Origin: Treponemataceae bacterium
Lineage (GTDB): Bacteria; Spirochaetota; Spirochaetia; Treponematales; Rectinemataceae
Reading direction: 5' to 3'
Assembly (NCBI GenBank): GCA_963678065.2
Contig: CAXXVZ010000005.1
Span: 800,001-864,000, forward strand
Length of the DNA: 64,000 nt
Both the position numbers and the translations under genes were made by a program. The notes below the pieces were generated by a model, which saw only the letters and a program-made list of their open reading frames with translations, did not search any database and was not told the DNA's origin. Positions 4,853 through 58,565 of the stretch are shown here, in pieces. Numbering within the stretch: position 1 is the stretch's first letter; the number at the start of each line of letters is the position of its first letter.

Positions 4853-4986
4853 GTTAGTTGCAGTCGTGACCTTCGAGCGCGCTTGGATGGGGAGACTTGT
4901 CTCCTCATCCAATACTCTATCTTGCGCGCGTTCTTCTCTTCCTCTTCTCTTAACCCTTATTTTTTTCTTTCACGATTGCAACTAAC
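4853..4986. repeat. Gene-less structured mini-cassette, family A (1 of 18)
   Basis: gttagttgcagtcgtga...tcacgattgcaactaac with an internal ttggatggggagac/gtctccYcatccaa hairpin. Confidence 0.92.
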
Positions 4987-5543
4987 GTTCGCCTGCCTAC
5001 GACGTTGTGGCGAGCATCGGCGAGCCACAATGTGCCTGAATGGAACGAGCGTGAGCGAGTGCAATGAAGGCCGAAGAAGGAGCCGACAGGCGACTGATGA
5101 GCGTGGGCAGTGCTGTTATATGCTGTACGCCGCCATCTTCAACCTTTTCCATTTTTCTTTCTCTTCACTGCTTCATACGTTCCTTTTTTTGGGTTTCCTA
5201 TTGTTTTTATTGATCTATTCAATACTCGCAAAGCTATTTTTTTACCATTTCAAAATCATTTTTTTGCCGTACATATTTGCTACTATACCTAAGGACATTT
5301 TACATGCCATGCTTCAACTTCATTATGCCATTACGATTATACTGAGATCGTATTCCTAACCATGACAAAATGGAATATTTTGAGTATGCATATTTTTTCT
5401 ATTCCACAATTCTTATTCATGGACTTATGATTCACTATTCTGAACCTCTTATTTTTTGTCAGTACCCCAGATTCACCGTTACTGCATTTATTCCCGTACT
5501 ATGATACTTTTTATTAATGACGGTACAATGGTAATTGTTCCCT

Positions 5544-5879
5544 CTATACCTTGTTTCGTTTCACTTTTTTGGGCTTCGGTTCGGGTAATTCATTGGCGGT
5601 TATCAGTATCAAATCTCGTATCCATTCCCTATCGTCAAATTTGTCTTTTATCAGAAAACTCATTCGTGCTCCTACATATGCAGGAGCTTCCGTTACATCC
5701 CCAATATAGGATCTCCCTTTTTCGGTAGGTTTTACATACAGTTGATTATCACAGATAAGGGCTACTACTTTACCATTACAATACAGTGCATATTCTCCAA
5801 ACATTTTTCGGTAGGTAATTGTCCCAGCACTTTCTATTTGATCAACAATATACTCAACAAAGTCTTGATCAGATGACAT
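5544..5879 (-). CDS. TfoX/Sxy N-terminal domain protein
   Basis: RKMFGEYALY..GKVVALICDNQLYVK motif. Confidence 0.9.
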   Translation of the reverse strand: MSSDQDFVEYIVDQIESAGTITYRKMFGEYALYCNGKVVALICDNQLYVKPTEKGRSYIGDVTEAPAYVGARMSFLIKDKFDDREWIRDLILITANELPEPKPKKVKRNKV

Positions 5880-6110
5880 TGGTATCCTCTCTTTTCTTTG
5901 GCGGCGTATTGCATATAACGTTTCCGGCCTGCGACGTTTGCGACCGCATCGGCGGGCCGCAAATGTGCCTGAATGGAACGAGCGTATGCGAGTGCAATGA
6001 AGGCCGAAGAAGGAGCCAAAGGCGACTGATGAGCGTGGGCCGTGTTGTTATCTGATGTTTGAACGCGCTCTCCTCTTCAATCTTCCCATTTTTAAAACCT
6101 TTCTTACTCT

Positions 6111-6692
6111 TCATTTCTTCATTTCAAAATTTTCAATTCCTATCTTCATTTCCTTATTTTTAACCCATTCTTCTTCCAAAATTCCAAATACCATATCGTC
6201 TTTCCACTCATTTTGTATCAAAATACTTTTTACAAAATATCCCTCATTTCTGAACCCAAGATTTTTCAATAATCGTATTGATGCTGTATTGTCTGGATCT
6301 ACTGACGCAATAACCCTGTGTTTTTTCAATGATATAAATATATAGTCAATTAGTGCTTGAACGGATTCTTTCCCAAATCCCTTATGGTGATCCTTTTTCC
6401 CTATTGTATAACCAATTTCACATTGTTGATTTTCTGGATCTATAAAATGAATCCCACTATCTCCAATAATTGTATCTTCATAATAGATCCCAAGCTGAAA
6501 CCAGGTATTTCCAACATTGAAGAATAATGTGTTATTTTTAATGAATGATTCCACATCATCAATGGATGTAGGTTTGAAGGACTGAAACTCCATAATTGAA
6601 GGGTCAGATCGGTATTCAAACATTTTCAGAGAATCTTCCAGAACTATATCTTTCAAAACCAAACGGTTAGTCCGAATGATAATATAACTCAT
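6111..6692 (-). CDS. GNAT N-acetyltransferase (RimJ/RimL type), copy 2
   Basis: Close paralog of 2601-3146. Confidence 0.9.
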   Translation of the reverse strand: MSYIIIRTNRLVLKDIVLEDSLKMFEYRSDPSIMEFQSFKPTSIDDVESFIKNNTLFFNVGNTWFQLGIYYEDTIIGDSGIHFIDPENQQCEIGYTIGKKDHHKGFGKESVQALIDYIFISLKKHRVIASVDPDNTASIRLLKNLGFRNEGYFVKSILIQNEWKDDMVFGILEEEWVKNKEMKIGIENFEMKK

Positions 6693-6910
6693 TGTCTTTT
6701 CCCTGATCTCGCGCGTTCAAATTTCAGATAACGTTTGCCTGCCTACGACGTTTTGGCCCGCATCGGCGGGACAAAATGTGCCTGAGCGGAATGAGCGCAA
6801 GCGAGTGAAGCGAATGGCCGAAGAAGGAGCCGAAGGCGACTGATGAGCGCGGGCAGCGCTGTTAGCCGAAGTACCTTGGTTTCAAGGTAGTATGCCGGTT
6901 TTTAACGTTA

Positions 6911-11920: not shown

Positions 11921-11926
11921 ATAATT

Positions 11927-13220: not shown

Positions 13221-13391
13221 TTCTTAAAGAATTTTCTCTATCTCGCGCCGTGCTATTGCGCCTAACGTTCTGCCTGTTTGCGACGATGGCGTGAGCATCG
13301 GCGAACGCCATTGTGCCTGAGCGGAATGAGCGATAGCGAGTGCAGCGATGGCCGAAGAGGGAGCTTGCGACCGATGAGCGTGAACAGCGCT

Positions 13392-13524
13392 GTTAGTTGC
13401 AGTCGTGACCTTCGAGCGCGCTTGGATGGGGAGACTTGTCTCCCCGTCCAATACTATATCTTGCGCGCGTTCTTCTCTTCCTCTTCTCTTACCCCTATTT
13501 TTTTCTTTCACGATTGCAACTAAC
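13392..13524. repeat. Mini-cassette family A
   Basis: Near-identical to 4853-4986. Confidence 0.92.
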
Positions 13525-13651: not shown

Positions 13652-14264
13652 GTTATGTGCTGTGTTTTTGGGGCACACCCTGTTTCTTCTCTTCATTTCT
13701 ATAATTCTTATTCCTTTACTCTTAACCCTTTATCTTTGCATTTTAATACTTTATTCAGATACATACGCACTTTATTTCTCTATACCATAGTTATTTATTT
13801 ACTTTGACAGTGCCTCTTTTCTTATATCCTACTACCTATATATTTTATCCTTAAATTCATATTTACGTTTTCGACTATTATAGTTCAGTACATGTTTTTC
13901 GATGTTTCCAATTCAAAAATCTACCATTTTTACTCATAAACCATATAGTAATAATGCCACTACTCAATATGTTTCTATACTTCAAAAATCACATTTTTTA
14001 GATTCAAATAGTTCATGAGAAAAACAGCAGCATCTTCGAAAGGCGTTTTGAAATCTATGATAATCCTATACCCAGAAATCCTATTTTTTATCTATACCAT
14101 TTTTGTACTGCATATACTACCAACACTGAATATAGCACTGATCCACAATTACTACAGAATTGTGTATAAACCCAATATCAGAAGATTCTATTTTTGAATG
14201 CTCTGACGTCATTCAGAATCATATGGTTTCGCACGAGATCCGCCCCAAAAACATTGCAACTAAC
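13652..14264. other. Long gene-less cassette (~610 bp), copy 1
   Basis: AT-rich with no credible ORF. Near-identical to 34736-35348 and homologous to 41517-42141. Confidence 0.8.
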
Positions 14265-14388
14265 GTTCTGCCTGTTTGCGACGATGGCGTGAGCATCGGC
14301 GAACGCCATTGTGCCTGAGCGGAATGAGCAGAGCGAGTGCAGCGATGGCCGAAGAGGGAGCCTGCGACCGATGAGCGTGAACAGCGCT

Positions 14389-15293
14389 GTTAGTTGCAGT
14401 CGTGACCTTCGAGCGCGCTTGGATGGGGAGACTTGTCTCTCCATCCAATACTCTATCTTGCGCGCGTTCTTCTCTTCCTCTTCTCTTACCTCTATTTTTT
14501 TCTTTCACGATTGCAACTAACGTTTGTGCCTCTGACGTTTCGGACCGCATCGGCGGGACGAAATGTGCCTGAGCGGAATGAGCGAATGCGAGTGTAGCGA
14601 TGGCCGAAGAGGGAGCCTGCGACCGATGAGCGTGAACAGCGCTGTTAGTTGCAGTCGTGACCTTCGAGCGCGCTTGGATGGGGAGACTTGTCTCCTCATC
14701 CAATACTCTATCTTGCGCGCGTTCTTCTCTTCCTCTTCTCTTACCCTTATTTTTTTCTTTCACGATTGCAACTAACGTTCTGCCTGTTTGCGACGATGGC
14801 GTGAGCATCGGCGAACGCCATTGTGCCTGAGCGGAATGAGCGTATGCGAGTGCAGCGAAGGCCGAAGAGGGAGCCTGCGACCGATGAGCGTGAACAGCGC
14901 TGTTAGTTGCAGTCGTGACCTTCGAGCGCGCTTGGATGGGGAGACTTGTCTCCCCATCCAATACTCTATCTTGCGCGCGTTCTTCTCTTCCTCTTCTCTC
15001 TTACCCTTATTTTTTTCTTTCACGATTGCAACTAACGTTCTGCCTGTTTGCGACGATGGCGTGAGCATCGGCGAACGCCATTGTGCCTGAGCGGAATGAG
15101 CGATAGCGAGTGCAGCGATGGCCGAAGAGGGAGCTTGCGACCGATGAGCGTGAACAGCGCTGTTAGTTGCAGTCGTGACCTTCGAGCGCGCTTGGATGGG
15201 GAGACTTGTCTCCCCATCCAATACTCTATCTTGCGCGCGTTCTTCTCTTCCTCTTCTCTTACCCTTATTTTTTCTTTCACGATTGCAACTAAC
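14389..15293. repeat. Four tandem family A mini-cassettes
   Basis: 14389-14521, 14644-14776, 14902-15036 and 15162-15293, separated by attC sites. Confidence 0.93.
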
Positions 15294-15471
15294 GTTCTGC
15301 CTGTTTACGACGATGACGCGAGCATCGGCGAGCGCCATTGTGCCTGAGCGGAATGAGCAAAGCGAGTGCAGCGATGGCCGAGGAGTCGCCAGCTTCGCTG
15401 GCGGCGACGAGCAGGGGCACGGTGTTAGATGATGTTGGGCACCCTCTTCATATATATTACTTTGCTTTTTC

Positions 15472-16212: not shown

Positions 16213-16378
16213 ATGAAAAATCTCCTCTTTCTCGGGTGCCCAATTTCATCTAACGTTCTGCCTGTTTGCGACGATGGCGCGAGCATCGGCGAGCGCCATT
16301 GTGCCTGAGCGGAATGAGCAAAGCGAGTGCAGCGATGGCCGAAGAGGGAGCCTGCGACCGATGAGCGTGAACAGCGCT

Positions 16379-16510
16379 GTTAGTTGCAGTCGTGACCTTC
16401 GAGCGCGCTTGGATGGGGAGACTTGTCTCCCCATCCAATACTATATCTTGCGCGCGTTCTTCTCTTCCTCTTCTCTTACCCTTATTTTTTCTTTCACGAT
16501 TGCAACTAAC
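16379..16510. repeat. Mini-cassette family A
   Basis: Near-identical to the other copies. Confidence 0.92.
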
Positions 16511-16637: not shown

Positions 16638-16775
16638 GTTATATGCTGTCGCGATCTTGGTTTAGCGCACTGAAAGATGGTGGCTGGATGCCACCATTTT
16701 TCAAGTAACATCCTGTGCGCGTTCTTTCTTTATCTCCTCTTCACTTTAGATACATTCCTCGCGATTGCATATAAC
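16638..16775. other. Gene-less structured mini-cassette, family C (copy 1)
   Basis: GCGCAC/GTGCGC stem, 14-bp hairpin tgaaagatggtggc-tggat-gccaccatttttca, pyrimidine tract. Confidence 0.88.
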
Positions 16776-20453: not shown

Positions 20454-20675
20454 ACGATACACTCCATATATGCATATACTAGTCATATACTATATGCACT
20501 GTCAAGCGAATCCTGTATTTTTCTCCTCTTCACCAAAACTTTCAGCTAACGTTCTGCCTGTTTGCGACGATGGCGTGAGCATCGGCGAGCGCCATTGTGC
20601 CTGAGCGGAATGAGCGTATGCGAGTGGAGCGATGGCCGAAGAGGGAGCTTGCGACCGATGAGCGTGAACAGCGCT

Positions 20676-20807
20676 GTTAGTTGCAGTCGTGACCTTCGAG
20701 CGCGCTTGGATGGGGAGACTTGTCTCCTCATCCAATACTCTATCTTGCGCGCGTTCTTCTCTTCCTCTTCTCTTACCCTTATTTTTTCTTTCACGATTGC
20801 AACTAAC
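20676..20807. repeat. Mini-cassette family A
   Basis: Near-identical to the other copies. Confidence 0.92.
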
Positions 20808-22225: not shown

Positions 22226-22422
22226 AATTTTCTCCTATCAATAATATACAATCTTTGTATATTGGAATCAATACTCCTCGCGCAAATTTCATCTAACGTT
22301 CTGCCTGTTTGCGACGATGGCGTGAGCATCGGCGAACGCCATTGTGCCTGAGCGGAATGAGCGACAGCGAGTGCAGCGATGGCCGAAGAGGGAGCCTGCG
22401 ACCGATGAGCGTGAACAGCGCT

Positions 22423-22813
22423 GTTAGTTGCAGTCGTGACCTTCGAGCGCGCTTGGATGGGGAGACTTGTCTCCCCATCCAATACTCTATCTTGCGCGCG
22501 TTCTTCTCTTCCTCTTCTCTTACCCTTTTTATTTTCTTTCACGATTGCAACTAACGTTCTGCCTGTTTGCGACGATGGCGTGAGCATCGGCGAACGCCAT
22601 TGTGCCTGAGCGGAATGAGCAAAGCGAGTGTAGCGATGGCCGAAGAGGGAGCCTGCGACCGATGAGCGTGAACAGCGCTGTTAGTTGCAGTCGTGACCTT
22701 CGAGCGCGCTTGGATGGGGAGACTTGTCTCTCCATCCAATACTCTATCTTGCGCGCGTTCTTCTCTTCTTCTTCTCTTACCCTTATTTTTTTTCTTTCAC
22801 GATTGCAACTAAC
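22423..22813. repeat. Two tandem family A mini-cassettes
   Basis: 22423-22555 and 22680-22813. Confidence 0.92.
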
Positions 22814-22956
22814 GTATGCCTGCCTACGACGTTGTGGCGAGCATCGGCGAGCCACAATGTGCCTGAGCGGAACGAGCGCATGCGAGTGCAGCAATTGGAA
22901 ATGGCAAGTAGTTTTCCCCACCATATGGCAACTAGGAATCCCCACCCGGTAGAGGG

Positions 22957-23697
22957 TTATTCCTCCTTCTTTGCAGAGATGCGATATGACTCCCCTGACA
23001 GGGAGAAAATCTTTGCGTGATGCATGAGACGATCCAACAGGGCTGCGGTCATAACCTCGTCGCCCATGAGTTCTGACCAAGAGTTCAGGTCCTTGTTGCT
23101 CGTCACGACGATAGAGGCACGTTCATAGAGATCCGAGACGAAGGTGAAAAAGAGATTGGCTTCCTTGCGCTCGATAGGAGTGTAGCCAATCTCATCAATG
23201 ATCATGAGGTTGGCCTTCGCGAGCCGGCTTAGCCTGAACTGAGCGCTGCGTGCGGCGTCAGAGCGCACGAGGAGCTTCACCAGTGAGGTCATGCGCTCGT
23301 AACAAACCGAATAGCCTTTGCGTACGGCCACATGGCCAAGAGCGATTGCGAGATGGGTCTTTCCGAGTCCAGGAGGCCCGAAGAGCAGAAGGTTCTCGTG
23401 ACGGTCTATCCAAGAGCACTCGGTGAGCTCAGAGAGGTCTCGTTTTCCAATTCCTGCTACTCGGCCGAGTTTGAAATCCTCGAGGCGCTTTACGACGGGA
23501 AAATGGGCCATGGCGAGGCCTCGTTTGAGGCGCCTGTCGCCGCGATCCTGTAGTTCGACGTCCACGAGGGTCTCGAGGAAGGCAAGGCATGTCAGTCCCC
23601 CGCTTTCAGCTTGTTTAAGAAGCTCAGGAAGCCGTGACGACGCGCCACGAAGCCGCAGGGACTCCAGTTTACGAGCGGATTCTGCGAGGGCGCTCAT
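22957..23697 (-). CDS. istB: IS21 helper AAA+ ATPase
   Basis: GPPGLGKT Walker A, IIDEIGY Walker B and LLDRL.HH. Confidence 0.95.
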   Translation of the reverse strand: MSALAESARKLESLRLRGASSRLPELLKQAESGGLTCLAFLETLVDVELQDRGDRRLKRGLAMAHFPVVKRLEDFKLGRVAGIGKRDLSELTECSWIDRHENLLLFGPPGLGKTHLAIALGHVAVRKGYSVCYERMTSLVKLLVRSDAARSAQFRLSRLAKANLMIIDEIGYTPIERKEANLFFTFVSDLYERASIVVTSNKDLNSWSELMGDEVMTAALLDRLMHHAKIFSLSGESYRISAKKEE

Positions 23698-25241
23698 TCT
23701 TCGTGCCTCTGCGTATCGACGAGCGCGTCGAGGAATCGCTGATACTCGCTGACCGAGCGTGTGGCAACTAGTGGAAGGTCTCTGGTTTGATGAAGGCCGC
23801 GGTACGGCGAAGGCGCCACTGCGGGCACTGGCGTCGTGCTGTTGACCGCGTCGATGAGATCCTGGGCGCTTGCAAGTCCTCTATCCAGGCAGAACTTCAA
23901 TGCAAGCACGAGTTTCTCTCTGTCGATGTTGCGCTTGAGAAGCTTCCGAAGTCGGCCAGCGTGCTCCCGGAAGTAGCGTCGATACTCGGTATAGATACCA
24001 TCGACGAAGCTCCCCCACTCGGGAAGATCATCTACTGCGGCGACAAGATCCGCGCGGAGCGTTTCCTGGGATCCTTCGCGATCGCGATAGTGAGCCTTGT
24101 CCAGCACCGTTCCGCCGGGTGTTGCCGCTTCGCGATGCGCCGCGATCTGGATACCCGTCTTCGTATCGAATACCAGGATGAGTCCGTCCTTGCGCTCGAT
24201 AGTGACCTCGTTGAGCCGGTACGAGTTCGGCACCGAGTACCTGGTCGCGGCGATCGATATAAGGCTTTTCTGATCCACGTTACGGCTCTCTCGGCAGCCC
24301 GATGCGGTGTCCGCGCGGAAAATAGACGCTCGGAGCGCCCGCAAGATGGGTTTCTCGTGCGCTTCGAAGTCCGCGAGCGGCATGAGACGCGTGGCTTGGC
24401 TCAGTTTTGCGTTCACTCGTAAGAGCCATTTGCGCATGCCTGCCTGGAGTTCGTCGAAGGTCGCGAAGCTGCGGCTCGAGAAATAGCTCGTTTTGACGTA
24501 TTTGACCGCATTCTCGACCTTTCCTTTCGATTCCGGATCGGCCGCACGGCAGACACGAAGCCGCAGTCCCTGTTCTGCGACGAACTCAGCAAAGGCTTTT
24601 GTCGTCGTGAGGTCGCCAAGGTTTTCCGTCACAATCATTGTCCGGTCCTGATCCATGACGAGTTCTTCGGTGATACCGCCAAAAAACTCGAAGGCGTCCA
24701 GGAGATGGCCGATCACATCCTCGCTGGTAAAGGGCCTGGATTGGGCCGCTACGTAGCGGTAACGGCTTCGTGAGAGTACTACGACAACAAACCAAGCCTT
24801 TCCGATGTTCGTCGTCTCTACGCCGAAATCAATCTGAGCCTGCTTGCCGTAGGCCAGAGGCTCCACAGGACGATATTCCCGACACAGGCCCACCTTAATC
24901 GCACCGGATGCCTTGAGATACGTCAGGTAGTTCCGCAACGTACGGTCCGAGCCTGGAAGCTCTCCGTATTTCTCGCTTAAGTAGTCGTGGACGGACGATG
25001 AGTAGACCATTCTGCCTTCGTGGTTCTTTTTAAAAATCTCGAGGATTTCGTCCTTGTAGACCGAAAAAGCCTTACCGCGTTCTGCCATTCGCTCGAGATA
25101 CCGTAAGAATTGGTCATTGTCCATGCGCAGGTACTTTCTCACGGTCTTGCGGTCCTTGCCAAGTTTTACCGCTAGTGCGCTGACTGTGAGTCCTTGCCTG
25201 TGCCCTGTTCGTACGATGTTGTAGTCCTTCATGGTAATCAT
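23694..25241 (-). CDS. istA: IS21 transposase
   Basis: HTH N-terminus (DRKTVRKYL), QAQIDFG and SKGKVEN.V.Y motifs. Confidence 0.95.
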   Translation of the reverse strand: MITMKDYNIVRTGHRQGLTVSALAVKLGKDRKTVRKYLRMDNDQFLRYLERMAERGKAFSVYKDEILEIFKKNHEGRMVYSSSVHDYLSEKYGELPGSDRTLRNYLTYLKASGAIKVGLCREYRPVEPLAYGKQAQIDFGVETTNIGKAWFVVVVLSRSRYRYVAAQSRPFTSEDVIGHLLDAFEFFGGITEELVMDQDRTMIVTENLGDLTTTKAFAEFVAEQGLRLRVCRAADPESKGKVENAVKYVKTSYFSSRSFATFDELQAGMRKWLLRVNAKLSQATRLMPLADFEAHEKPILRALRASIFRADTASGCRESRNVDQKSLISIAATRYSVPNSYRLNEVTIERKDGLILVFDTKTGIQIAAHREAATPGGTVLDKAHYRDREGSQETLRADLVAAVDDLPEWGSFVDGIYTEYRRYFREHAGRLRKLLKRNIDREKLVLALKFCLDRGLASAQDLIDAVNSTTPVPAVAPSPYRGLHQTRDLPLVATRSVSEYQRFLDALVDTQRHEE

Positions 25242-25407
25242 TTCTTGTGCCGCATGCTCGCAAGCATAGCGGCCAAGGCCCCTGTGGGTGGGGAATCCTA
25301 TTTGCCAACTGCTGGGGAATTCAGTTTACCATTTCCAGCAGCAATGGCCGAAGAAGGAGCCACAGGCGACTGATGAGCGTGGGCAGCGCTGTTAGACGAC
25401 GTTTGGG

Positions 25408-32061: not shown

Positions 32062-32271
32062 ATAGCAATGTACCATAAATTCAGGAGAATAGCAACTATT
32101 TTTCAGTTGCATACATCGTATTCTCTCGCGCCTTATTTCGCCTAACGTTCTGCCTGTTTGCGACGATGGCGCGAGCATCGGCGAGCGCCATTGTGCCTGA
32201 GCGGAATGAGCGCATGCGAGTGCAGCGATGGCCGAAGAGGGAGCCTGCGACCGATGAGCGTGAACAGCGCT

Positions 32272-32662
32272 GTTAGTTGCAGTCGTGACCTTCGAGCGCG
32301 CTTGGATGGGGAGACTTGTCTCTCCATCCAATACTCTATCTTGCGCGCGTTCTTCTCTTCCTCTTTTCTTACCCTTATTTTTTCTTTCACGATTGCAACT
32401 AACGTTCTGCCTGTTTGCGACGATGGCGCGAGCATCGGCGAGCGCCATTGTGCCTGAGCGGAATGAGCGATAGCGAGTGCAGCGATGGCCGAAGAGGGAG
32501 CCTGCGACCGATGAGCGTGAACAGCGCTGTTAGTTGCAGTCGTGACCTTCAAGCGCGCTTGGATGGGGAGACTTGTCTCCTCATCCAATACTATATCTTG
32601 CGCGCGTTCTTCTCTTTCTCTTTTCTTAACCCTTATTTTTCTCTTTCACGATTGCAACTAAC
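32272..32662. repeat. Two tandem family A mini-cassettes
   Basis: 32272-32403 and 32529-32662. Confidence 0.92.
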
Positions 32663-32868: not shown

Positions 32869-33303
32869 ATGAGTAGTATCAATGCGGTAAAAGACGTCAG
32901 AACATTTAACCGTTTCTATACCAACATCATTGGCGTTATTGACCGTCATATCCTCGATAGTCCGTATTCATTGACTGAAGCAAGAATTCTCTATGAAATC
33001 TATAATAACCATACTATGACAGCTCGAAAAATAAAGAAGTATCTCCACATTGATGAAGGTTATCTGAGTCATGCACTAGAAAAAATGATCAAGAATGGCT
33101 TACTCATACGACAAAAATCCAAAGATGATAGAAGACTCAATCTCTTATCCTTAACTCAGAAGGGTGAAACTGAGTTTTTAGCACTAAGTTTGCGTTCTGA
33201 ACATGCAATTGCATCCCTTATCAAAGATCTGACCGGTAATGAACTAGAAAGGCTCACAGCTGCAATGCGGGAAATTACGTTTTTACTCACCAAAGAGGGG
33301 TAA
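32869..33303 (+). CDS. MarR family regulator (inverted cassette)
   Basis: RTFNRFYT, SLTEARILYE and DDRR...LSLTQKG motifs. Confidence 0.9.
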   Translation: MSSINAVKDVRTFNRFYTNIIGVIDRHILDSPYSLTEARILYEIYNNHTMTARKIKKYLHIDEGYLSHALEKMIKNGLLIRQKSKDDRRLNLLSLTQKGETEFLALSLRSEHAIASLIKDLTGNELERLTAAMREITFLLTKEG

Positions 33304-33307
33304 TCTT

Positions 33308-33805
33308 ATGGTAACACTGGATGATATCACGATTCGAAATGAATTAGTGCCCGGCGACATTGGTTATATAATCTATCTGCATGGACTGCTGTATAGTACA
33401 GAAAATGCTTATGGACTTCAATTTGAAGCATATGTAACCGAAGGTTTGTTAGAATTTGTAAAAAGATACGATCCCTCTATAGATCGTGTATGGGTATGTG
33501 AACACAATACCCATATTGTAGGATTTATTTTGCTCATGCATCGCGATAACAATGCAGCTCAACTACGCTATTTCCTTATCCATCCGCAGTATCGGGGTAT
33601 TGGCTTAGGGAAAAGGCTTATTGAGTTGTATATGCAATTCTTACATCACTGTAACTACAGTACATCATATCTTTGGACAACCACTGAGCAGAAAACCGCT
33701 ATATCCTTATATAGGAGATATGGATTTTGTTTAACCGAGGAAAAAAAGTCATCGTTATTCGGGAAACCTTTACGTGAACAACGTTTTGACTTGGTTATTC
33801 GGTAG
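33308..33805 (+). CDS. GNAT N-acetyltransferase coupled to MarR
   Basis: PGDIG, AQLRYFL..P.YRGIGLG and LY...GF motifs. Confidence 0.9.
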   Translation: MVTLDDITIRNELVPGDIGYIIYLHGLLYSTENAYGLQFEAYVTEGLLEFVKRYDPSIDRVWVCEHNTHIVGFILLMHRDNNAAQLRYFLIHPQYRGIGLGKRLIELYMQFLHHCNYSTSYLWTTTEQKTAISLYRRYGFCLTEEKKSSLFGKPLREQRFDLVIR

Positions 33806-33961
33806 AGTTTGGGGGCTCGAAGGTGGTTGCGGCTAACGTTCTGCCTGTTTGCGACGATGGCGCGAGCATCGGCGAGCGCCATTGTGCCTGAGCGGAATGA
33901 GCAGAGCGAGTGCAGCGATGGCCGAAGAGGGAGCTTGCGACCGATGAGCGTGAACAGCGCT

Positions 33962-34608
33962 GTTAGTTGCAGTCGTGACCTTCGAGCGCGCTTGGATGGG
34001 GAGACTTGTCTCTCCATCCAATACTCTATCTTGCGCGCGTTCTTCTCTTCTTCTTCTCTTACCCTTATTTTTTTCTTTCACGATTGCAACTAACGTTCTG
34101 CCTGTTTGCGACGATGGCGTGAGCATCGGCGAACGCCATTGTGCCTGAGCGGAATGAGCGAATGCGAGTGTAGCGATGGCCGAAGAGGGAGCCTGCGACC
34201 GATGAGCGTGAACAGCGCTGTTAGTTGCAGTCGTGACCTTCGAGCGCGCTTGGATGGGGAGACTTGTCTCCTCATCCAATACTATATCTTGCGCGCGTTC
34301 TTCTCTTCCTCTTCTCTTACCCTTATTTTTTTCTTTCACGATTGCAACTAACGTTCTGCCTGTTTGCGACGATGGCGTGAGCATCGGCGAACGCCATTGT
34401 GCCTGAGCGGAATGAGCAAAGCGAGTGTAGCGATGGCCGAAGAGGGAGCTTGCGACCGATGAGCGTGAACAGCGCTGTTAGTTGCAGTCGTGACCTTCGA
34501 GCGCGCTTGGATGGGGAGACTTGTCTCCTCATCCAATACTCTATCTTGCGCGCGTTCTTCTCTTCCTCTTCTCTTACCCTTATTTTTTCTTTCACGATTG
34601 CAACTAAC
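33962..34608. repeat. Three tandem family A mini-cassettes
   Basis: 33962-34094, 34220-34352 and 34477-34608. Confidence 0.93.
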
Positions 34609-34735: not shown

Positions 34736-35348
34736 GTTATGTGCTGTGTTTTTGGGGCACACCCTGTTTCTTCTCTTCATTTCTATAATTCTTATTCCTT
34801 TACTCTTAACCCTTTATCTTTGCATTTTAATACTTTATTCAGATACATACGCACTTTATTTCTCTATACCATAGTTATTTATTTACTTTGACAGTGCCTC
34901 TTTTCTTATATCCTACTACCTATATATTTTATCCTTAAATTCATATTTACGTTTTCGACTATTATAGTTCAGTACATGTTTTTCGATGTTTCCAATTCAA
35001 AAATCTACCATTTTTACTCATAAACCATATAGTAATAATGCCACTACTCAATATGTTTCTATACTTCAAAAATCACATTTTTTAGATTCAAATAGTTCAT
35101 GAGAAAAACAGCAGCATCTTCGAAAGGCGTTTTGAAATCTATGATAATCCTATACCCAGAAATCCTATTTTTTATCTATACCATTTTTGTACTGCATATA
35201 CTACCAACACTGAATATAGCACTGATCCACAATTACTACAGAATTGTGTATAAACCCAATATCAGAAGATTCTATTTTTGAATGCTCTGACGTCATTCAG
35301 AATCATATAGTTTCGCACGAGATCCGCCCCAAAAACATTGCACATAAC
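34736..35348. other. Long gene-less cassette, copy 2
   Basis: Near-identical to 13652-14264, with the same attC variant on its left. Confidence 0.8.
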
Positions 35349-35430
35349 GTTTGCCTGCCTACGACGTTGTGGCGAGCATCGGCGAGCCACAATGTGCCTG
35401 AGCGGAACGAGCGCATGCGAGTGCAGCAAT

Positions 35431-38400
35431 TGGAAATGGCAAGTAGTTTTCCCCACCATATGGCAACTAGGAATCCCCACCCGGTAGAGGGTTATTCCTC
35501 CTTCTTTGCAGAGATGCGATATGACTCCCCTGACAGGGAGAAAATCTTTGCGTGATGCATGAGACGATCCAACAGGGCTGCGGTCATAACCTCGTCGCCC
35601 ATGAGTTCTGACCAAGAGTTCAGGTCCTTGTTGCTCGTCACGACGATAGAGGCACGTTCATAGAGATCCGAGACGAAGGTGAAAAAGGGCTCTTCGCTGT
35701 TTCATGTGGGTAACTGCCCCAGTTTACCGGCGACAATGTAGGTCATGATCTTGAGATTTTTGATAGTTCGGAATCCTCTGGCTCTGGTCTTTGCTGACTG
35801 AATCAGACTATTCAACGATTCAAGAAGCCCATTTGTCACTCCGGATGTAAGCCACCGAACGACTCCATTCCAGTGTCGTTTGAGCATCGCAGCAAAATTG
35901 ATGATTGGGGTAAGCTGTGATCGTGTTGCCCATACTCTCCATTTTTTAAGTTCTTCTATGGCTCGAGAAGCCGAGAATTCGAAAAGTCCCTTGAAAATGT
36001 TCATCATTCGCCATGCTCGCCCTGTTTTTAACTGTAATCCTGACAAGGTGTTGAGACGGGCCAAATTCTTAACCGACAGATTGTAGGGGTTGCTCAACCA
36101 GACATATTTCGAACCTCTGAGTACCGTTTCCATCGTTGATTCTTCTTTCCGCACGTCGTTGACTGCTTCACCCAGAAGCTTCATGACATGAAACCGATCA
36201 AACGTGAGAGCAGCCTGGGGAAGATGCTCTTCGATCCCGGACATGAACGCCGGCGACATATCGGTACAGACCGTCCGTGATAGCAGTTTTCGAGCCTCCA
36301 TGGGCTTCCAGATGCTCTGTAAAGGCTTTTATAGTGGATGCATCCTTGCCTTCGGTCACATATATGGCTTTCCCTGTATCGAGATCGGCCACAACGGTGA
36401 TGTATGAGTGTCCGCGTTTGGCTGCTGTTTCGTCGATTCCGATTCGTGTGGTTTTCGATAAATCTTGTGTAGCCACGTCTTCGGAAACATAATGGTCCAT
36501 AATTCGCCACACTCGCGTATCGGTGGTAGCTGTCAGTCTGGAAACTGCCTTGACGCTCATTTCCTTGACCATGATCATCATGAGGGCTTCGTACAGCAGG
36601 GTAAATCCCGATCCTTTACGCGCCCACGGGATATCAATCAGATGAACGCCATGCTCAGGACAGTCTATCCGCGGAACTCGTGCATGCAGATAGGCTTCAT
36701 GCTGGAAAAAATTGAGGTGACGCCATGTTTTGGGCATCGTATCGTAGGCTGTACCCTTGTAATCGCAGGAAAAACACGGAAAACGACTCCCGGGCTTGAA
36801 CCCAAGCTGTATATCAAGCCGATGTTCTGTTGGTTTGAACTCTATGTTCTCAACAATCCAGGGTTCAGATAATCCAAGCGCAAGGGCGAATAGTTCTACG
36901 TCTTTCATGCTGCTCATCCTACCATGCTTCCTTGGTTACCCACACGATTCGTTGAAGAGCCTGAAAAAGAGATTGGCTTCCTTGCGCTCGATAGGAGTGT
37001 AGCCAATCTCATCAATGATCATGAGGTTGGCCTTCGCGAGCCGGCTTAGCCTGAACTGAGCGCTGCGTGCGGCGTCAGAGCGCACGAGGAGCTTCACCAG
37101 TGAGGTCATGCGCTCGTAACAAACCGAATAGCCTTTGCGTACGGCCACATGGCCAAGAGCGATTGCGAGATGGGTCTTTCCGAGTCCAGGAGGCCCGAAG
37201 AGCAGAAGGTTCTCGTGACGGTCTATCCAAGAGCACTCGGTGAGCTCAGAGAGGTCTCGTTTTCCAATTCCTGCTACTCGGCCGAGTTTGAAATCCTCGA
37301 GGCGCTTTACGACGGGAAAATGGGCCATGGCGAGGCCTCGTTTGAGGCGCCTGTCGCCGCGATCCTGTAGTTCGACGTCCACGAGGGTCTCGAGGAAGGC
37401 AAGGCATGTCAGTCCCCCGCTTTCAGCTTGTTTAAGAAGCTCAGGAAGCCGTGACGACGCGCCACGAAGCCGCAGGGACTCCAGTTTACGAGCGGATTCT
37501 GCGAGGGCGCTCATTCTTCGTGCCTCTGCGTATCGACGAGCGCGTCGAGGAATCGCTGATACTCGCTGACCGAGCGTGTGGCAACTAGTGGAAGGTCTCT
37601 GGTTTGATGAAGGCCGCGGTACGGCGAAGGCGCCACTGCGGGCACTGGCGTCGTGCTGTTGACCGCGTCGATGAGATCCTGGGCGCTTGCAAGTCCTCTA
37701 TCCAGGCAGAACTTCAATGCAAGCACGAGTTTCTCTCTGTCGATGTTGCGCTTGAGAAGCTTCCGAAGTCGGCCAGCGTGCTCCCGGAAGTAGCGTCGAT
37801 ACTCGGTATAGATACCATCGACGAAGCTCCCCCACTCGGGAAGATCATCTACTGCGGCGACAAGATCCGCGCGGAGCGTTTCCTGGGATCCTTCGCGATC
37901 GCGATAGTGAGCCTTGTCCAGCACCGTTCCGCCGGGTGTTGCCGCTTCGCGATGCGCCGCGATCTGGATACCCGTCTTCGTATCGAATACCAGGATGAGT
38001 CCGTCCTTGCGCTCGATAGTGACCTCGTTGAGCCGGTACGAGTTCGGCACCGAGTACCTGGTCGCGGCGATCGATATAAGGCTTTTCTGATCCACGTTAC
38101 GGCTCTCTCGGCAGCCCGATGCGGTGTCCGCGCGGAAAATAGACGCTCGGAGCGCCCGCAAGACGGGTTTCTCGTGCGCTTCGAAGTCCGCGAGCGGCAT
38201 GAGACGCGTGGCTTGGCTCAGTTTTGCGTTCACTCGTAAGAGCCATTTGCGCATGCCTGCCTGGAGTTCGTCGAAGGTCGCGAAGCTGCGGCTCGAGAAA
38301 TAGCTCGTTTTGACGTATTTGACCGCATTCTCGACCTTTCCTTTCGATTCCGGATCGGCCGCACGGCAGACACGGAGCCGCAGTCCCTGTTCTGCGACGA

Positions 38401-39154
38401 ACTCAGCAAAGGCTTTTGTCGTCGTGAGGTCGCCAAGGTTTTCCGTCACAATCATTGTCCGGTCCTGATCCATGACGAGTTCTTCGGTGATACCGCCAAA
38501 AAACTCGAAGGCGTCCAGGAGATGGCCGATCACATCCTCGCTGGTAAAGGGCCTGGATTGGGCCGCTACGTAGCGGTAACGGCTTCGTGAGAGTACTACG
38601 ACAACAAACCAAGCCTTTCCGATGTTCGTCGTCTCTACGCCGAAATCAATCTGAGCCTGCTTGCCGTAGGCCAGAGGCTCCACAGGACGATATTCCCGAC
38701 ACAGGCCCACCTTAATCGCACCGGATGCCTTGAGATACGTCAGGTAGTTCCGCAACGTACGGTCCGAGCCTGGAAGCTCTCCGTATTTCTCGCTTAAGTA
38801 GTCGTGGACGGACGATGAGTAGACCATTCTGCCTTCGTGGTTCTTTTTAAAAATCTCGAGGATTTCGTCCTTGTAGACCGAAAAAGCCTTACCGCGTTCT
38901 GCCATTCGCTCGAGATACCGTAAGAATTGGTCATTGTCCATGCGCAGGTACTTTCTCACGGTCTTGCGGTCCTTGCCAAGTTTTACCGCTAGTGCGCTGA
39001 CTGTGAGTCCTTGCCTGTGCCCTGTTCGTACGATGTTGTAGTCCTTCATGGTACTCATTTCTTGTGCCGCATGCTCGCAAGCATAGCGGCCAAGGCCCCT
39101 GTGGGTGGGGAATCCTATTTGCCAACTGCTGGGGAATTCAGTTTACCATTTCCA
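35431..39154 (-). mobile_element. IS21 copy 2 inside attC; istA 37511-39058 intact, istB disrupted by nested ISL3
   Basis: Length 3724 = 2442 + 1274 + 8. Left flank is the same as copy 1, right flank is a different attC position, and there is no TSD. Confidence 0.93.
35688..36961 (-). mobile_element. ISL3 copy 2 nested in istB
   Basis: Same ORFs as 3158-4431; 8-bp TSD TGAAAAAG. Confidence 0.93.
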
Positions 39155-39390
39155 GAGCGTATGCGAGTGCAATGAAGGCCGAAGAAGGAGCCGAAGGCGA
39201 CTGATGAGCGTGGGCAGTGCTGTTAGGCGACGTGTTGTTTTGCGTTTCTTCAAAATACACAATTACGTTGATACAGTTGTCAGATGTATTTTATCTACTG
39301 CTTTGCTGTTACCTAAAAATGGGGACTATATCATAAATGATTTCCTACTGATGTTTTAGTCTAATCAATGCTTGAAGTCATCTAAACATA

Positions 39391-41251: not shown

Positions 41252-41389
41252 GTTATGTGCTGTCGCGATCTTGGTTTAGCGCACTGAAAGGTGGTGGCTG
41301 GATGCCACCACTTTTCAAGAAATATCCTGTGCGCGTTCTTTCTTTATCTTCTCTTCACTTTAGATACATTCCTCGCGATTGCACATAAC
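41252..41389. other. Mini-cassette family C (copy 2)
   Basis: Differs from 16638-16775 by compensatory A-T to G-C changes in the hairpin and in the R boxes. Confidence 0.88.
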
Positions 41390-43729: not shown

Positions 43730-43732
43730 ATT

Positions 43733-51466: not shown

Positions 51467-51615
51467 TGCTAATTCCCCAATTGCGTATAACGTTCTGCCT
51501 GTTTACGACGATGGCGCGAGCATCGGCGAGCGCCATTGTGCCTGAGCGGAACGAGCAAAGCGAGTGTAGCGATGGCCGAAGAGGGAGCCTGCGACCGATG
51601 AGCGTGAACAGCGCT

Positions 51616-51748
51616 GTTAGTTGCAGTCGTGACCTTCGAGCGCGCTTGGATGGGGAGACTTGTCTCCTCATCCAATACTCTATCTTGCGCGCGTTCTTCT
51701 CTTCCTCTTCTCTTACCCCTATTTTTTTCTTTCACGATTGCAACTAAC
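51616..51748. repeat. Mini-cassette family A
   Basis: Near-identical to the other copies. Confidence 0.92.
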
Positions 51749-51908
51749 GTTCGCCTGCCTACGACGTTGTGGCGAGCATCGGCGAGCCACAATGTGCCTG
51801 AGCGGAATGAGCGCATGCGAGTGCAGCGATGGCCGAAGAAGGAGCCGATAGGCGACTGATGAGCGTGGGCAGTGCTGTTAGCTGATGTACACCCCACTCT
51901 TCCATCTT

Positions 51909-53926: not shown

Positions 53927-54403
53927 TTATGTTTTATTCCTATTTTCATATTCTTTTATCTCTTCTACCCTTTTCTCAAATAATTCCTTATGCCACTTCA
54001 TATGCCTGAAATAATCTTCAACAAGATAGTTCAAACTTTTTCCTTCATCGTTTATTTTCCAATAATTCTTCATATCTTCATCTTTAATGTTTTTAATTAT
54101 ATACACTATAAATACATTATAAGATTTCCAGAATGATACGAGAAACTCGTAATCCATTCTTCCAATATCTGATACGTTTTTCCACTCTTCCTCATTATAT
54201 CCTGGAAATTCTATTGTTTGGTTTATCTGAAGACGGATGAACCTCTGATGATTGTTTGATGCGGAATCTATCAGATGTCCAACCATCTCCTGTAATGTCC
54301 ATTTATTCGTTTCAATACGCACAGATGCACTATCCTTATACTGAAGCATTACGACCTGGAATTCATTGATAAGGTTTTCATAATGTTGAATAGCAAATGG
54401 CAT
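53927..54403 (-). CDS. DinB family protein
   Basis: KW...E.VGHLIDSASNNHQRFIR and DY.RHM.WH motifs. Confidence 0.9.
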   Translation of the reverse strand: MPFAIQHYENLINEFQVVMLQYKDSASVRIETNKWTLQEMVGHLIDSASNNHQRFIRLQINQTIEFPGYNEEEWKNVSDIGRMDYEFLVSFWKSYNVFIVYIIKNIKDEDMKNYWKINDEGKSLNYLVEDYFRHMKWHKELFEKRVEEIKEYENRNKT

Positions 54404-54965
54404 ATTTCTCTCCAGATAAAGCTTTTAATCGTGATTCCTAAATCATAGCACAAAATTCTTTAATTCATTTCATACATACACGATAGCAAAATATCAAACA
54501 CGGAATAAATACGTACTGAATCATGGTTTTCAGATCTTAACCCTGAGATCTTCAATACCCGGGTACGAGACATCATGACGTGTACAATGACAAAAACACA
54601 AAATGGCTACAATTCTTATTTAGCTTCTTGCCATGATAGTATTGTTACAGTTTATTCTTCAAATAATGCAATTGCGCATAACGTTTGCCTGCCTACGACG
54701 TTGTGGCGAGCATCGGCGAGCCACAATGTGCCTGAATGGAACGAGCGTATGCGAGTGGAGTGAAGGCCGAAGAAGGAGCCGAAGGCGACTGATGAGCGTG
54801 GGCAGTGCTGTTAGGCGACGTGTTGTTTTGCGTTTCTTCAAAATACACAATTACGTTGATACAGTTGTCAGATGTATTTTATCTACTGCTTTGCTGTTAC
54901 CTAAAAATGGGGACTATATCATAAATGATTTCCTACTGATGTTTTAGTCTAATCAATGCTTGAAG

Positions 54966-55499
54966 TCATCTAAACATACTATGCTGTACAATAAGCTTCT
55001 TTATTGGCCTAATAGTTTTTAGTGCCCAGTCATAATGGCTGGATGTTGCTGATACTAGATATGCACCTAACGATGTTGTTCCTGTCCATGCGTACTTTTT
55101 CTTAGTAAATAATTCATCATCACTATGTTTTTGTATTATTTCTATCATTTCTTTATGACTTTTCTTTACTAGCTTTATTGCTTCATTTAATTCTGTTCCT
55201 TTATACTTTTCATAAATTCTATGATTTAGGACAGGCAAGGTTTGCCAGGTAACATCTTCTGCCGGAATAGCTGGCTTCTTGCCGGACATTCCAATTTTAT
55301 ACCAATTCTTCATCATCGAATGCCATTCATGTAAATGACAAATCACATCAGCTATTGTCTTATCTCTATCATTGAGTTCATTATTTTCGTATGATTTAAC
55401 TTGATATTCTTTGGGTAGCGATTCAATGAACGCTAATAGTTTTGTAATGTTTTCATCGCCAAGCGACACTAGCTCTGCTTTGTTGGTTGGTCTAGGCAT
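54966..55499 (-). CDS. ClbS/DfsB (DUF1706) family protein, copy 2
   Basis: Near-identical cassette to 39222-40053. Confidence 0.85.
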   Translation of the reverse strand: MPRPTNKAELVSLGDENITKLLAFIESLPKEYQVKSYENNELNDRDKTIADVICHLHEWHSMMKNWYKIGMSGKKPAIPAEDVTWQTLPVLNHRIYEKYKGTELNEAIKLVKKSHKEMIEIIQKHSDDELFTKKKYAWTGTTSLGAYLVSATSSHYDWALKTIRPIKKLIVQHSMFR

Positions 55500-55770
55500 G
55501 TAATTCTCCTAAATTAATTCGCGCCAAAGGCGTCCTGTTAACAGCATTTACCGTGATACATATAAACCTATTTGTATAAGTGGTAAAACACTAAAATGGT
55601 AATCTCTGGAAGGATCGCGCAAAACAATATGTCGCCTAACGTTTTGCCTGTTTGCGACGATGGCGCGAGCATCGGCGAGCGCCATTGTGCCTGAGCGGAA
55701 TGAGCGCATGCGATGCGAGTGCAGCGATGGCCGAAGAGGGAGCTTGCGACCGATGAGCGTGAACAGCGCT

Positions 55771-55902
55771 GTTAGTTGCAGTCGTGACCTTCGAGCGCGC
55801 TTGGATGGGGAGACTTGTCTCCTCATCCAATGCTATATCTTGCGCGCGTTCTTCTCTTCCTCTTCTCTTAACCCTTATTTTTTTTTCACGATTGCAACTA
55901 AC
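55771..55902. repeat. Mini-cassette family A
   Basis: Near-identical to the other copies. Confidence 0.92.
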
Positions 55903-56046
55903 GTTCGCCTGCCTACGACGTTGTGGCGAGCATCGGCGAGCCACAATGTGCCTGAGCGGAACGAGCGCATGCGAGTGCAGCGATGGCCGAAGAAGGAGCC
56001 GATAGGCGACTGATGAGCGTGGGCAGTGCTGTTATGTGCAGTTGCT

Positions 56047-57222
56047 CTAATCCACCATTCCAATACTTGTACAGGAATTAAATCTACAAAACCTTTCAAA
56101 ACAGGTGTTGAGAGCATCACGCAGTCGCTTGTTTTTCTTTACTCCATCCTCATACCAAAGATGCTTCACTTCAAGTGTTTGACTTTTCTTATTGTTGACT
56201 ATTTCAGCCCTGCCAATAAACCGATCTCCTGATACGATCGGTACTACATAATAGCCATATACTCGTTGTTTCTCGGGTGTATAGATTTCCCACTTGTATT
56301 CAAAATCAAAAATGCACCGTATCAGTTTTCTGTCCCATAATAAATTATCAAGAGGCGCAAGCAATTCTGTCCGCTCCTCAAAACCATCAGTATGTACTGC
56401 CGATTCCACTAATGTGCTATCTGATTTTAGGCAATAGAGCTTTTCTTGTATCCCTTCAACAGAAATTTCCATAATCATTTCTTCATCCAGTAGCTGCCCG
56501 AAAACGATATCGCGTTCACCACTTTTGAGATTCCGTATATTCAAATATGCATCAGATGCTTTATTCCATAGCATTCCAACCGACGATATTCTTCTGAGAA
56601 CCCGCCATTTCATATGACTTAGTTCCTCTTTTAATGGATCCTCTGCCTGAAGTATCTCATGTGGAATATAATCTTCTGAGCATGCGTAATACTTTATTGA
56701 GCCCTTTTTATGATGGATTATCAGATCCCCACGAAAATATAAGGTTTCGAGCGCTGCTCGTGCAAGATTTGTGCTGGACCAATACCAATCTACCTTATGC
56801 TTCAGGTCAAAGTCTTTTGAGCACACCGGACCCTTTTCTTTTATTGTCTGGATTATGGTATCGGCAACTGTTTTCACCTCTTCATAACCTCGTCCATTTT
56901 TCCGATGGGCTTCACGTATTCGTTCAAAATACTTCCAATCACTCAGTTGTATGATCGAAAGATTTTTATCAAAATAATCAACTAATTCCCTATCCTCATA
57001 CAAAAGTTCATACAACATTGACTTGGTAAAGCCTTCTACTCTGGACTGGAGGACCAGTTCTGCATTTTTCCCACATATATCAATAGGATCAAATTGGATA
57101 CAGCCGGCCTGACGTACAAAATCAATGATACCGTGCTTTAGTGAGAACCTGTAGGTACCACATAATCCATGCTTCAGCAAAAGGAACTGGCGTGCTTGCT
57201 GTTTTGACAGTGTTTTCTGCAT
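56047..57222 (-). CDS. YcaQ/AlkZ-like (HTH_42) winged-helix DNA glycosylase
   Basis: IQFDP (QxD), LLAPLDNLLWDR and F.Y.WEIY.P...R.YGYYV.P motifs. Start reassigned to MQKTLS. Confidence 0.9.
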   Translation of the reverse strand: MQKTLSKQQARQFLLLKHGLCGTYRFSLKHGIIDFVRQAGCIQFDPIDICGKNAELVLQSRVEGFTKSMLYELLYEDRELVDYFDKNLSIIQLSDWKYFERIREAHRKNGRGYEEVKTVADTIIQTIKEKGPVCSKDFDLKHKVDWYWSSTNLARAALETLYFRGDLIIHHKKGSIKYYACSEDYIPHEILQAEDPLKEELSHMKWRVLRRISSVGMLWNKASDAYLNIRNLKSGERDIVFGQLLDEEMIMEISVEGIQEKLYCLKSDSTLVESAVHTDGFEERTELLAPLDNLLWDRKLIRCIFDFEYKWEIYTPEKQRVYGYYVVPIVSGDRFIGRAEIVNNKKSQTLEVKHLWYEDGVKKNKRLRDALNTCFERFCRFNSCTSIGMVD

Positions 57223-57455
57223 GTACTTTCCATGATAACTGCTGATTAGAGCAATTGCACATAACGTTTTGTGCCTCTGACGTGTGCGACCGCACAGGCG
57301 GGCGCACATGTGCCTGAGCGGAATGAGCGCAAGCGAGTGCAGCGATGGCCGAGGAGCCATGAAATGGCGACGAGCAGGGGCACGGTGTTAGGCGCTTTTA
57401 TTTTTTTCTTAATTCAACTTCTCTGTAAAAACATAATGTATTTATAAATATTTCA

Positions 57456-58247
57456 TCAAACTTCCCAACATTTATCCACAATTTCTTTATCCCAAATCTT
57501 TAGCTTTTCTCCAAATAATGATAATAAACAGTGAAAAAATGTAGAAGCATTGCTGAATACATTCCCAATATCGAATTCATCTGTTTGAAGTGTCCATATC
57601 ATTGATTCTTGATTGATTCTCAAAAACCTGTCAATTTCTTCAATATCACCATGAACAAATGATGATAAAAAGGTATAAAAATAGTCATATGATTCAAGAT
57701 GATCTACATTTTCCGCCATTTCTCTGATACTTTTACCAGACCAATTAGAAAATTCTATATTTTTACCTTTTCTAGTTTTTCTAGAATAATTTCCAATTAC
57801 TTCTTCATATTCCCTGTCTATTGTCTCTTTTTCATCATCCCAACAGTCATCCCATTCCATATTTAATGCATATTTCCAGTCTTCCTTTTTAGTATTTAGA
57901 TGTTTTTTACATACCTCCATTCGATTTTTTTTTATGACCTTTTTATAGAAAATATATTGCCTAGATCGTTCTGTAGGCCTTTCAGAAATATAATGGGCAT
58001 TTATGTCAATTTCCAGCATTGATCTGCACATAACATATCCGACTGTTGACGGATAATATTGTGGGTTTACACTATCGTAAAGCCTTATTAATGAATTTGA
58101 TATTGATAATTCCTGCAATAAAAAGCAAATCATTATTGATTTATATGAAATGTTCTCAGTTTCAATACGCTTTATATCAACATTTTTACCAATTTTTATA
58201 AGATTTTTTAAGACAGAAATATGTTGTTCAAATGTAAGTGCTTTCAT
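57456..58247 (-). CDS. DUF5677-like (HEPN-related) hypothetical protein
   Basis: CRSMLE, WSGKSIREMA and Y..LSSFVHG motifs. Confidence 0.7.
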   Translation of the reverse strand: MKALTFEQHISVLKNLIKIGKNVDIKRIETENISYKSIMICFLLQELSISNSLIRLYDSVNPQYYPSTVGYVMCRSMLEIDINAHYISERPTERSRQYIFYKKVIKKNRMEVCKKHLNTKKEDWKYALNMEWDDCWDDEKETIDREYEEVIGNYSRKTRKGKNIEFSNWSGKSIREMAENVDHLESYDYFYTFLSSFVHGDIEEIDRFLRINQESMIWTLQTDEFDIGNVFSNASTFFHCLLSLFGEKLKIWDKEIVDKCWEV

Positions 58248-58432
58248 GTTTTTCCTAATTGTATGTTTGGCAAACAAGATAAAGCTAAAAAAATAATTGC
58301 GCCTAACGTTCTGCCTGTTTGCGACGATGGCGTGAGCATCGGCGAACGCCATTGTGCCTGAGCGGAATGAGCGTATGCGAGTGTAGCGATGGCCGAAGAG
58401 GGAGCTTGCGACCAATGAGCGTGAACAGCGCT

Positions 58433-58565
58433 GTTAGTTGCAGTCGTGACCTTCGAGCGCGCTTGGATGGGGAGACTTGTCTCCCCATCCAATACTATAT
58501 CTTGCGCGCGTTCTTCTCTTCCTCTTCTCTTAACCCTTATTTTTTCTTTCACGATTGCAACTAAC
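58433..58565. repeat. Mini-cassette family A
   Basis: Near-identical to the other copies. Confidence 0.92.

Follow-up and report, generated by a model that had tools for sequence, protein, structure and literature searches.

How does a cassette that carries no gene become the most abundant unit of a cassette array? This question is raised by a 64,000-nucleotide stretch of DNA from a Treponemataceae bacterium (assembly GCA_963678065.2, positions 800001-864000 of contig CAXXVZ010000005.1, here C5), which we call the window and whose numbering is used for the cassettes of families A, B and C. The window lies in an integron-like cassette array of about 177 kb. In agreement with the original prediction, made from the letters of the window, 18 of its 63 complete cassettes belonged to a single gene-less family (A), with bodies of 132-135 bp, and no other family exceeded three copies there. 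The family A unit is a 257-base cassette comprising an attC site and a body. The whole array held 52 copies, with 33 distinct body sequences, out of about 174 cassettes (parsing separated 173 cassettes, with 51 in family A; the 52nd copy, beside an interrupted attC, was unparsed). The next-largest families had 6 copies each, and 18 gene-cassette families had 2-6. The explanation that we prefer, and to which we give an even chance of being right, is that family A is a passenger cassette that multiplied through copy-and-paste re-insertion, with recombination among the copies shuffling it, and whose fold acts in single-stranded DNA. It draws on the absence of a conserved open reading frame (ORF), the private attC, the random interspersion of the copies, their presence in first position, identical copies at a distance, mosaic alleles and a compensatory fold. 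We also counted for it the 52 copies of family A, as against at most 6 for any gene-cassette family.

The window layout was as predicted, with seven single copies and tandems of four, two, two and three. The attC of the first copy, of the family A type, is at 4723..4856 (- strand; TAAC...GTTA on the + strand, which is the predicted folding, or bottom, strand) and its body at 4853..4986. The other single units, all on the - strand, are at 13263..13524, 16251..16510 (with four identical copies elsewhere in the array), 20547..20807, 51488..51748, 55637..55902 (with a 5-bp duplication within its attC) and 58304..58565. Four units in tandem occupy 14261..15293 (bodies at 14389, 14644, 14902 and 15162), two units each 22294..22813 and 32143..32662, and three units 33834..34608, again on the - strand. 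The 19th copy suspected at 63983 was confirmed (the start of its attC is at 63986..64000, - strand); it is the first of a further tandem of three, whose bodies lie directly past the window edge. When the genome contigs were searched with an attC profile built from the window, 178 matches were found on C5, between 754.7 and 931.4 kb and in a single orientation. The first cassette after the recombinase gene that adjoins the array also belongs to family A.

Family A was not found outside the C5 array, neither in a second, canonical integron (on contig C3) nor elsewhere in the genome, and all 56 genomic matches of a covariance model lay between attC-type sites of this one array. A miniature inverted-repeat transposable element or a repetitive extragenic palindromic element, expected to be dispersed over the genome outside the cassette array, was therefore rejected. 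An assembly artefact was rejected on account of the 33 distinct bodies and by the presence of the unit in independent samples. The body (about 134 bp) contained no ORF of more than 150 bp and no conserved reading frame: body lengths fell in all three frames (23, 21 and 7 of 51), and the ATG of families B and C is ATA in family A. We thus rejected a conserved peptide, there being no reading frame shared among the copies.

The arrangement of the copies bears on how they arose. Adjacent pairs of family A cassettes were as frequent as expected at random (15 observed, 14.7 expected), and the neighbours in tandems differed in 15 out of 15 cases, by 5-26 edits. At the same time, the 50 full units included 17 identical pairs, separated by as much as 90 kb, and similarity did not correlate with distance (rho -0.005). 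The four-gamete test was failed by 88 of 136 pairs of biallelic sites. Two attC sites, at 14518-14646 and 15290-15427, joined halves of different attC types, a pattern that, from their sequence, would fit homologous recombination within the conserved central part. Random adjacency, distant identical copies, mosaic alleles and hybrid attC sites together fit repeated re-insertion of single cassettes combined with recombination among copies, and not local tandem duplication; amplification in place was rejected because neighbours were never identical and adjacency was random. The prediction of an amplified non-autonomous element thus stood as far as a mobile, non-coding unit is concerned, whose dispersal fits copying by circle formation and re-insertion, while its optimisation for IntI did not (see below). 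Copy-and-paste duplication has been shown for class 1 integrons and their recombinase IntI1 (PMC8024014).

We confirmed the fold that had been described for the + strand. In copy 1, it consists of a 17-bp outer stem (arms 4853-4869 and 4970-4986), a GCGCGC helix (4877-4882 and 4924-4929), a 14-bp hairpin (4883-4912, with a TT loop at 4897-4898), an 11-nt bulge (4913-4923) and a 40-nt pyrimidine tract (4930-4969). The fold of the + strand had a z-score of -8.4 with DNA parameters and -10.0 with RNA parameters, none of 200 shuffles being as stable, and the body was far more stable than shuffles on both strands. A pattern spanning the structure had 21 matches in the window, compared with 0.00 expected. 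The idea that the fold favours the bottom strand held in direction, with a bias that is small as DNA (-27.7 kcal/mol for the + strand and -25.2 kcal/mol for the other) and absent in family B. For the inner fold, the + strand was better in 23 of 33 family A variants (median -17.6 and -15.8 kcal/mol as DNA; -29.7 and -25.8 kcal/mol as RNA), slightly better in family C, and no better in family B as DNA. Hairpin variants had been said to give G·T pairs on the + strand; this was the case at three of the four variable sites, while a singleton, in a copy outside the window, gives A·C on that strand. Within family A, 4 of 74 paired positions varied, as compared with 21 of about 62 unpaired columns, a figure inflated by homopolymer slippage. 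The motif around the inner GCGCGC helix (4919-4942) resembles 2502-2535 and 4440-4468, the joined inner ends of the end stem of one gene-cassette family; to judge from the letters, this may hint at the origin of the motif or be a coincidence of low complexity.

Two other gene-less families shared this architecture. In the whole genome, family B had one copy (body at 4589..4726; its sequence and attC type differ from those of family A) and family C three, with bodies at 16638..16775 and 41252..41389 (5% diverged from the former, its hairpin showing a compensatory change) and a third copy beyond the window. Both families keep the outer stem, the GCGCGC helix, the 14-bp hairpin, the one-sided bulge and the pyrimidine tract, with sequences different from those of family A. 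We aligned seven chosen sequences (4 of 52 for A, 1 of 1 for B, 2 of 3 for C). Pairing was kept in 99.2% of the cells, and both sides had changed in 15 of 36 pairs (10 of 14 in the hairpin), which none of 500 shuffles equalled, in a control that ignores relatedness among sequences from three independent families. Because pairing was kept through compensatory change and few paired positions vary within family A, the internal fold is probably under selection. The sequence beside the GCGCGC helix was also conserved, though unpaired. A comparable hairpin near an end was present in 3 of 69 other cassette families of up to 1,500 bp. GC-rich hairpins recurred in the untranslated ends of relatives' gene cassettes (L031, L034, L035, L046-L048); some of them share the ATCC-type loop of families B and C.

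Family A does have its own attC variant, both sequence markers being found in 48 of 50 intact family A sites and in none of 120 others. The R-box cores are TAAC/GTTA, and folding of the bottom strand was favoured in family A (median -26.0 kcal/mol, compared with -19.5 for the top strand; n=50) as well as in the other cassettes (-28.6 and -21.5 kcal/mol; n=120). An attC optimised for IntI-driven amplification was rejected, since the predicted fold of the family A site is slightly weaker than that of the others. In the excised circle, R-box pairing is predicted to rise from a median of 0.18 to 0.94 in family A and from 0.41 to 0.98 in other cassettes. We also folded a random subsample of cassettes in their array context (19 A, 9 gene and 4 B or C cassettes), with an equilibrium model of naked DNA. 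In this model, R-box pairing was at least 0.96, corresponding to a full attC stem, at six of the seven A-A junctions in the sample. Instead of this, the two ends of the cassette itself paired with each other in 10 of 11 single A copies and in all 9 gene cassettes.

The 17-bp terminal stem, put forward as a special feature, turned out to be a general property of the array. End stems of 17-25 bp were present in 80 of 90 cassette families (for instance at 662-1518 and 5115-5919 in the window), the shortest of all being those of the three gene-less families. Position 11 of the end stem is G·T on the + strand in 71 of the 80 families, and the other end-stem wobbles comprised seven G·T and no A·C on that strand. 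The terminal stem is thus a property of the whole system, and so is some of the argument on strand. We nonetheless counted for the passenger explanation that G·T falls on the same strand at three of the four hairpin sites and at stem position 11 throughout the array. Array-type end stems were also seen in 11 of 18 stretches from related genomes. In the canonical integron on C3, the ends matched over just 8 bp, with 9-11 of 20 positions in nine intervals; its cassettes carry short hairpins after the R' box.

The recombinase gene of the array (C5:931898-933076) adjoins it and has the same orientation as the cassettes. The first cassette starts about 325 bp past its stop codon, and no attC precedes that cassette. 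When compared with the canonical IntI of the same genome, the protein shows a gap of about 41 residues that corresponds to the IntI-specific insertion; it aligned in two pieces, below the cut-off, to VchIntIA (2A3V) and TIGR02249. Recombinases without the IntI-specific domain have been treated as not being IntI (PMC4889954). IntI chemistry cannot therefore be assumed, and the bottom-strand, replicative mechanism that the original prediction took as established is an extrapolation here. At its N-terminus the protein also carries an additional region that weakly matches HARP. Among 301 genomes of the order, 57 had close homologues, and none of 93 in family f3 did. The second integron (C3:96500-116499) encodes a full IntI, and its attC sites, about ten in number, belong to a different type. 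Its IntI could act in trans on the C5 array; its own array holds no family A copy. The dnaA-dnaN genes are at about 1.175 Mb on C5, with DnaA-box-like sites; the GC skew is too flat to mark out the replichores. If the replication origin is at dnaA, the leading strand would be copied from the bottom strand, as is the case in large sedentary integrons. For such integrons, no consistent gain in excision with short cassette length has been reported up to 1,500 bp (PMC5371416).

These data suggest the following sequence of events. The array recombinase would repeatedly excise and re-insert the family A cassette; by analogy with the copy-and-paste outcome described for IntI1, excision would leave the donor copy in place, and the circle would re-enter next to the recombinase gene. 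Homologous recombination would shuffle alleles among the copies. The conserved fold likely works in single-stranded DNA, and not as a product useful to the host. More speculatively, the lead of family A over families B and C may depend on its own frequency, in that an A-A junction would, according to the folding model, restore in the chromosome a fully paired, circle-like attC. Taken to its end, this would make family A a minimal, structure-defined parasite of a recombinase without IntI domain, with a runaway feedback through A-A junctions that leaves families B and C rare, a modelled scenario that we regard as unlikely.

Several findings weigh against the explanation by a passenger cassette. 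Families B and C match family A in size and fold and are yet rare, so that the fold is insufficient for amplification. Single-strand, replicative recombination is extrapolated from IntI to a recombinase that lacks the IntI insertion, and, if the origin is at dnaA, the bottom strand would template the leading strand, a setting for which no consistent gain in excision from short length has been reported. In addition to the weaker predicted attC of family A, its circle-state attC is at -38.4 kcal/mol, compared with -45.5 kcal/mol for other cassettes. The circular unit, predicted to be rod-like, was only 42-55% paired when folded as DNA (three copies); it resembles a loose dumbbell, and the rod was rejected. 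About four mutational events underlie the G·T polarity, and one copy contradicts it. Tandems are as frequent as chance would give, which leaves the frequency-dependent step without independent support. Finally, the covariation suits an RNA equally well, and the body was found in RNA-library contigs from two studies.

This last point leads to the main competitor, a structured non-coding RNA, most likely made from the + (antisense) strand, whose dose would be lifted by the high copy number. The covarying pairs, most of all in the hairpin, are what such an RNA would display, as is the conserved unpaired sequence beside the GCGCGC helix, and the + strand folds better as RNA by about 4 kcal/mol in family A and 3-5 kcal/mol in family C. 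A precedent cited for it is the small RNA in an ORF-less cassette of Xanthomonas (PMC6557892). The family A body lay within contigs of one DNA run and three metatranscriptome runs, among 4 examined of 24 listed; such contigs say nothing on transcription, strand, ends or level and may represent DNA carry-over. Family B was not covered in these four runs. Against an RNA, Rfam 15 gave no family at the gathering score for the body, with chance-level matches only, and no sigma-70 site was found at a 9-of-12 threshold on either strand of six A, B and C units, in consensus-based scans that overlook promoters of cryptic or non-sigma-70 type. Gene cassettes share the outer stem as part of their recombination sites, a product acting in trans would leave the random dispersal over 52 positions unexplained, and the covariation itself comes from three families and a shuffle control blind to relatedness. 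A CsrA sponge, a form of RNA function prompted by the GGA loops of families B and C, was rejected as no CsrA was found in the genome. On balance we consider an RNA improbable, but a serious contender. The body may resemble Y RNA, a likeness for which Rfam gave no support.

The same promoter scans bear on the proposal that the cassette is a transcriptional spacer, selected because it tunes its neighbours wherever it happens to be inserted, whether through a cryptic promoter, through antisense termination or as a polar, untranslated block. Promoter activity has been found in gene-less cassettes derived from Treponema and Vibrio (PMC6557892; 10.1101/2023.11.21.568050), untranslated stretches are polar on downstream cassettes (10.1101/2024.03.26.586746), and family A has both a strong hairpin followed by a pyrimidine tract on the + strand and a copy in first position. 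However, the four-copy tandem contained no promoter-like and no terminator-like site, and the placement of family A was independent of whether neighbours had a promoter-like site, both upstream (11 of 34, compared with 30 of 84; p = 0.83) and on the downstream side (p = 0.67). Tandems, which would be redundant for such a role, were not depleted. We therefore think this proposal quite unlikely, and the absence of promoter or terminator matches and of a preference for neighbours' promoters was counted in favour of a passenger. Pure drift, in which gene conversion and a recombinase biased towards duplication let a short, cheap cassette rise by chance while its fold is a relic of cassette-end architecture, appears even less probable. 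It would account for the duplication of 18 gene-cassette families, for the rarity of families B and C despite their fold, for the unremarkable attC of family A, and for the pyrimidine-rich flanks and GC-rich arm ends, which occur in gene cassettes as well. It fits poorly with the near-complete retention of pairing despite sequence turnover, with the difference in variability between paired and unpaired positions within family A (subject to the slippage already mentioned), and with the scarcity of comparable end hairpins in other families.

We looked for family A in other genomes and samples. A DNA search of 40 relatives and a scan of 62 related genomes with the covariance model (R1) gave no match, in mostly fragmented assemblies, and an attC pattern had no match in 68 genomes of the same taxonomic family. 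A generic short-cassette pattern gave 14 single matches in 400 genomes of the same order, which is the control level; 13 of these had no end complementarity and L136, with 16 of 20, had no fold, so that they were rejected. Pattern scans returned 9 viral, 9 genome and 10 metagenome loci. The sole true match among them (L073) was an independent public metagenome contig with an A-A tandem in a different arrangement. The host may be uncultured.

Family A is a known kind of element, whereas the system that houses it does not qualify as an IntI system. It is bounded by attC sites, has no ORF, has many paralogues in one array and is narrow in range, which describes paralogous gene-less integron cassettes. 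The closest parallel is a non-coding cassette family of Vibrio vulnificus, which accounts for 45 of 219 and 34 of 187 cassettes in two strains (Boucher et al. 2006, PMC1382264), and for which gene conversion, and selfish as opposed to promoter or RNA roles, were proposed. Compared by description, both families are gene-less, restricted to the array and to a lineage, and very high in copy number. Family A differs by its body of only about 134 bp, the compensatory fold in three families, the private attC and the absence of the IntI insertion from the adjacent recombinase; the main text of that paper does not use the term 'secondary structure'. The choice between selfish and functional cassettes is accordingly a question raised in 2006, and why as much as half of some superintegrons consists of gene-less cassettes (as selfish units, promoters or RNAs) has been asked since then. 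In the literature searched, which excluded most subscription papers and supplements, we found no gene-less cassette for which a covarying fold is described.

Other comparisons were more partial. Promoter-carrying gene-less cassettes share with family A the lack of an ORF, a place in chromosomal arrays, including the reverse-orientation integrons of Treponema, and the first position (PMC6557892; 10.1101/2023.11.21.568050); unlike them, family A has no sigma-70 consensus (-35/-10), and its copy number is far above the 3-13 gene-less cassettes per Vibrio genome (10.1101/2023.11.21.568050). The sRNA-Xcc1 cassette of Xanthomonas is likewise a non-coding, possibly antisense element in an integron cassette (PMC6557892; 10.1101/2025.06.18.660453), whereas family A has no Rfam match and no linked symE or other gene. 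The array resembles canonical sedentary chromosomal integrons in its tyrosine recombinase beside a long one-way array, its TAAC/GTTA attC sites with bottom-strand bias, its toxin-antitoxin cassettes and its low GC, and differs from them by the missing IntI insertion, a recombinase gene co-directional with the cassettes, and end pairing of 17-25 bp instead of about 8 bp, as on C3. Family A thus offers a very small unit with defined helices and natural compensatory variants. Two low-copy families with the same fold and a canonical integron without family A copies in the same genome provide built-in controls. The system also bears on how a recombinase without the hairpin-reading domain of IntI handles cassettes.

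The remaining observations concern the array at large. Its cassette genes are on the - strand and include, among 42 ORFs scanned, GNAT acetyltransferases and PIN, ParE and HepT toxin-antitoxin genes. The cassette at 32869-33805 in the window has two ORFs on the + strand (one of 144 aa and then a GNAT of 165 aa), against the direction of the array. Insertion sequences break up the array at many points. IS21-type elements (IstA/IstB) repeatedly split attC sites, in the middle of the site at both 22813-25391 and 35348-39222 in the window, and also near 761.8, 788.0 and 796.6 kb on C5. Away from the array, at C2:667433-667508, a single incomplete attC of C5 type is likewise next to an insertion sequence. 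A retron-like RNA was rejected as an identity for family A, since cassettes in general have the terminal repeat and the unit is not linked to any reverse transcriptase. One reverse transcriptase (C5:773956-774618; 439-aa frame), possibly part of a group II intron, is within a 3-kb cassette of the array, and a second (C3:118915-119577) lies just outside the C3 array.

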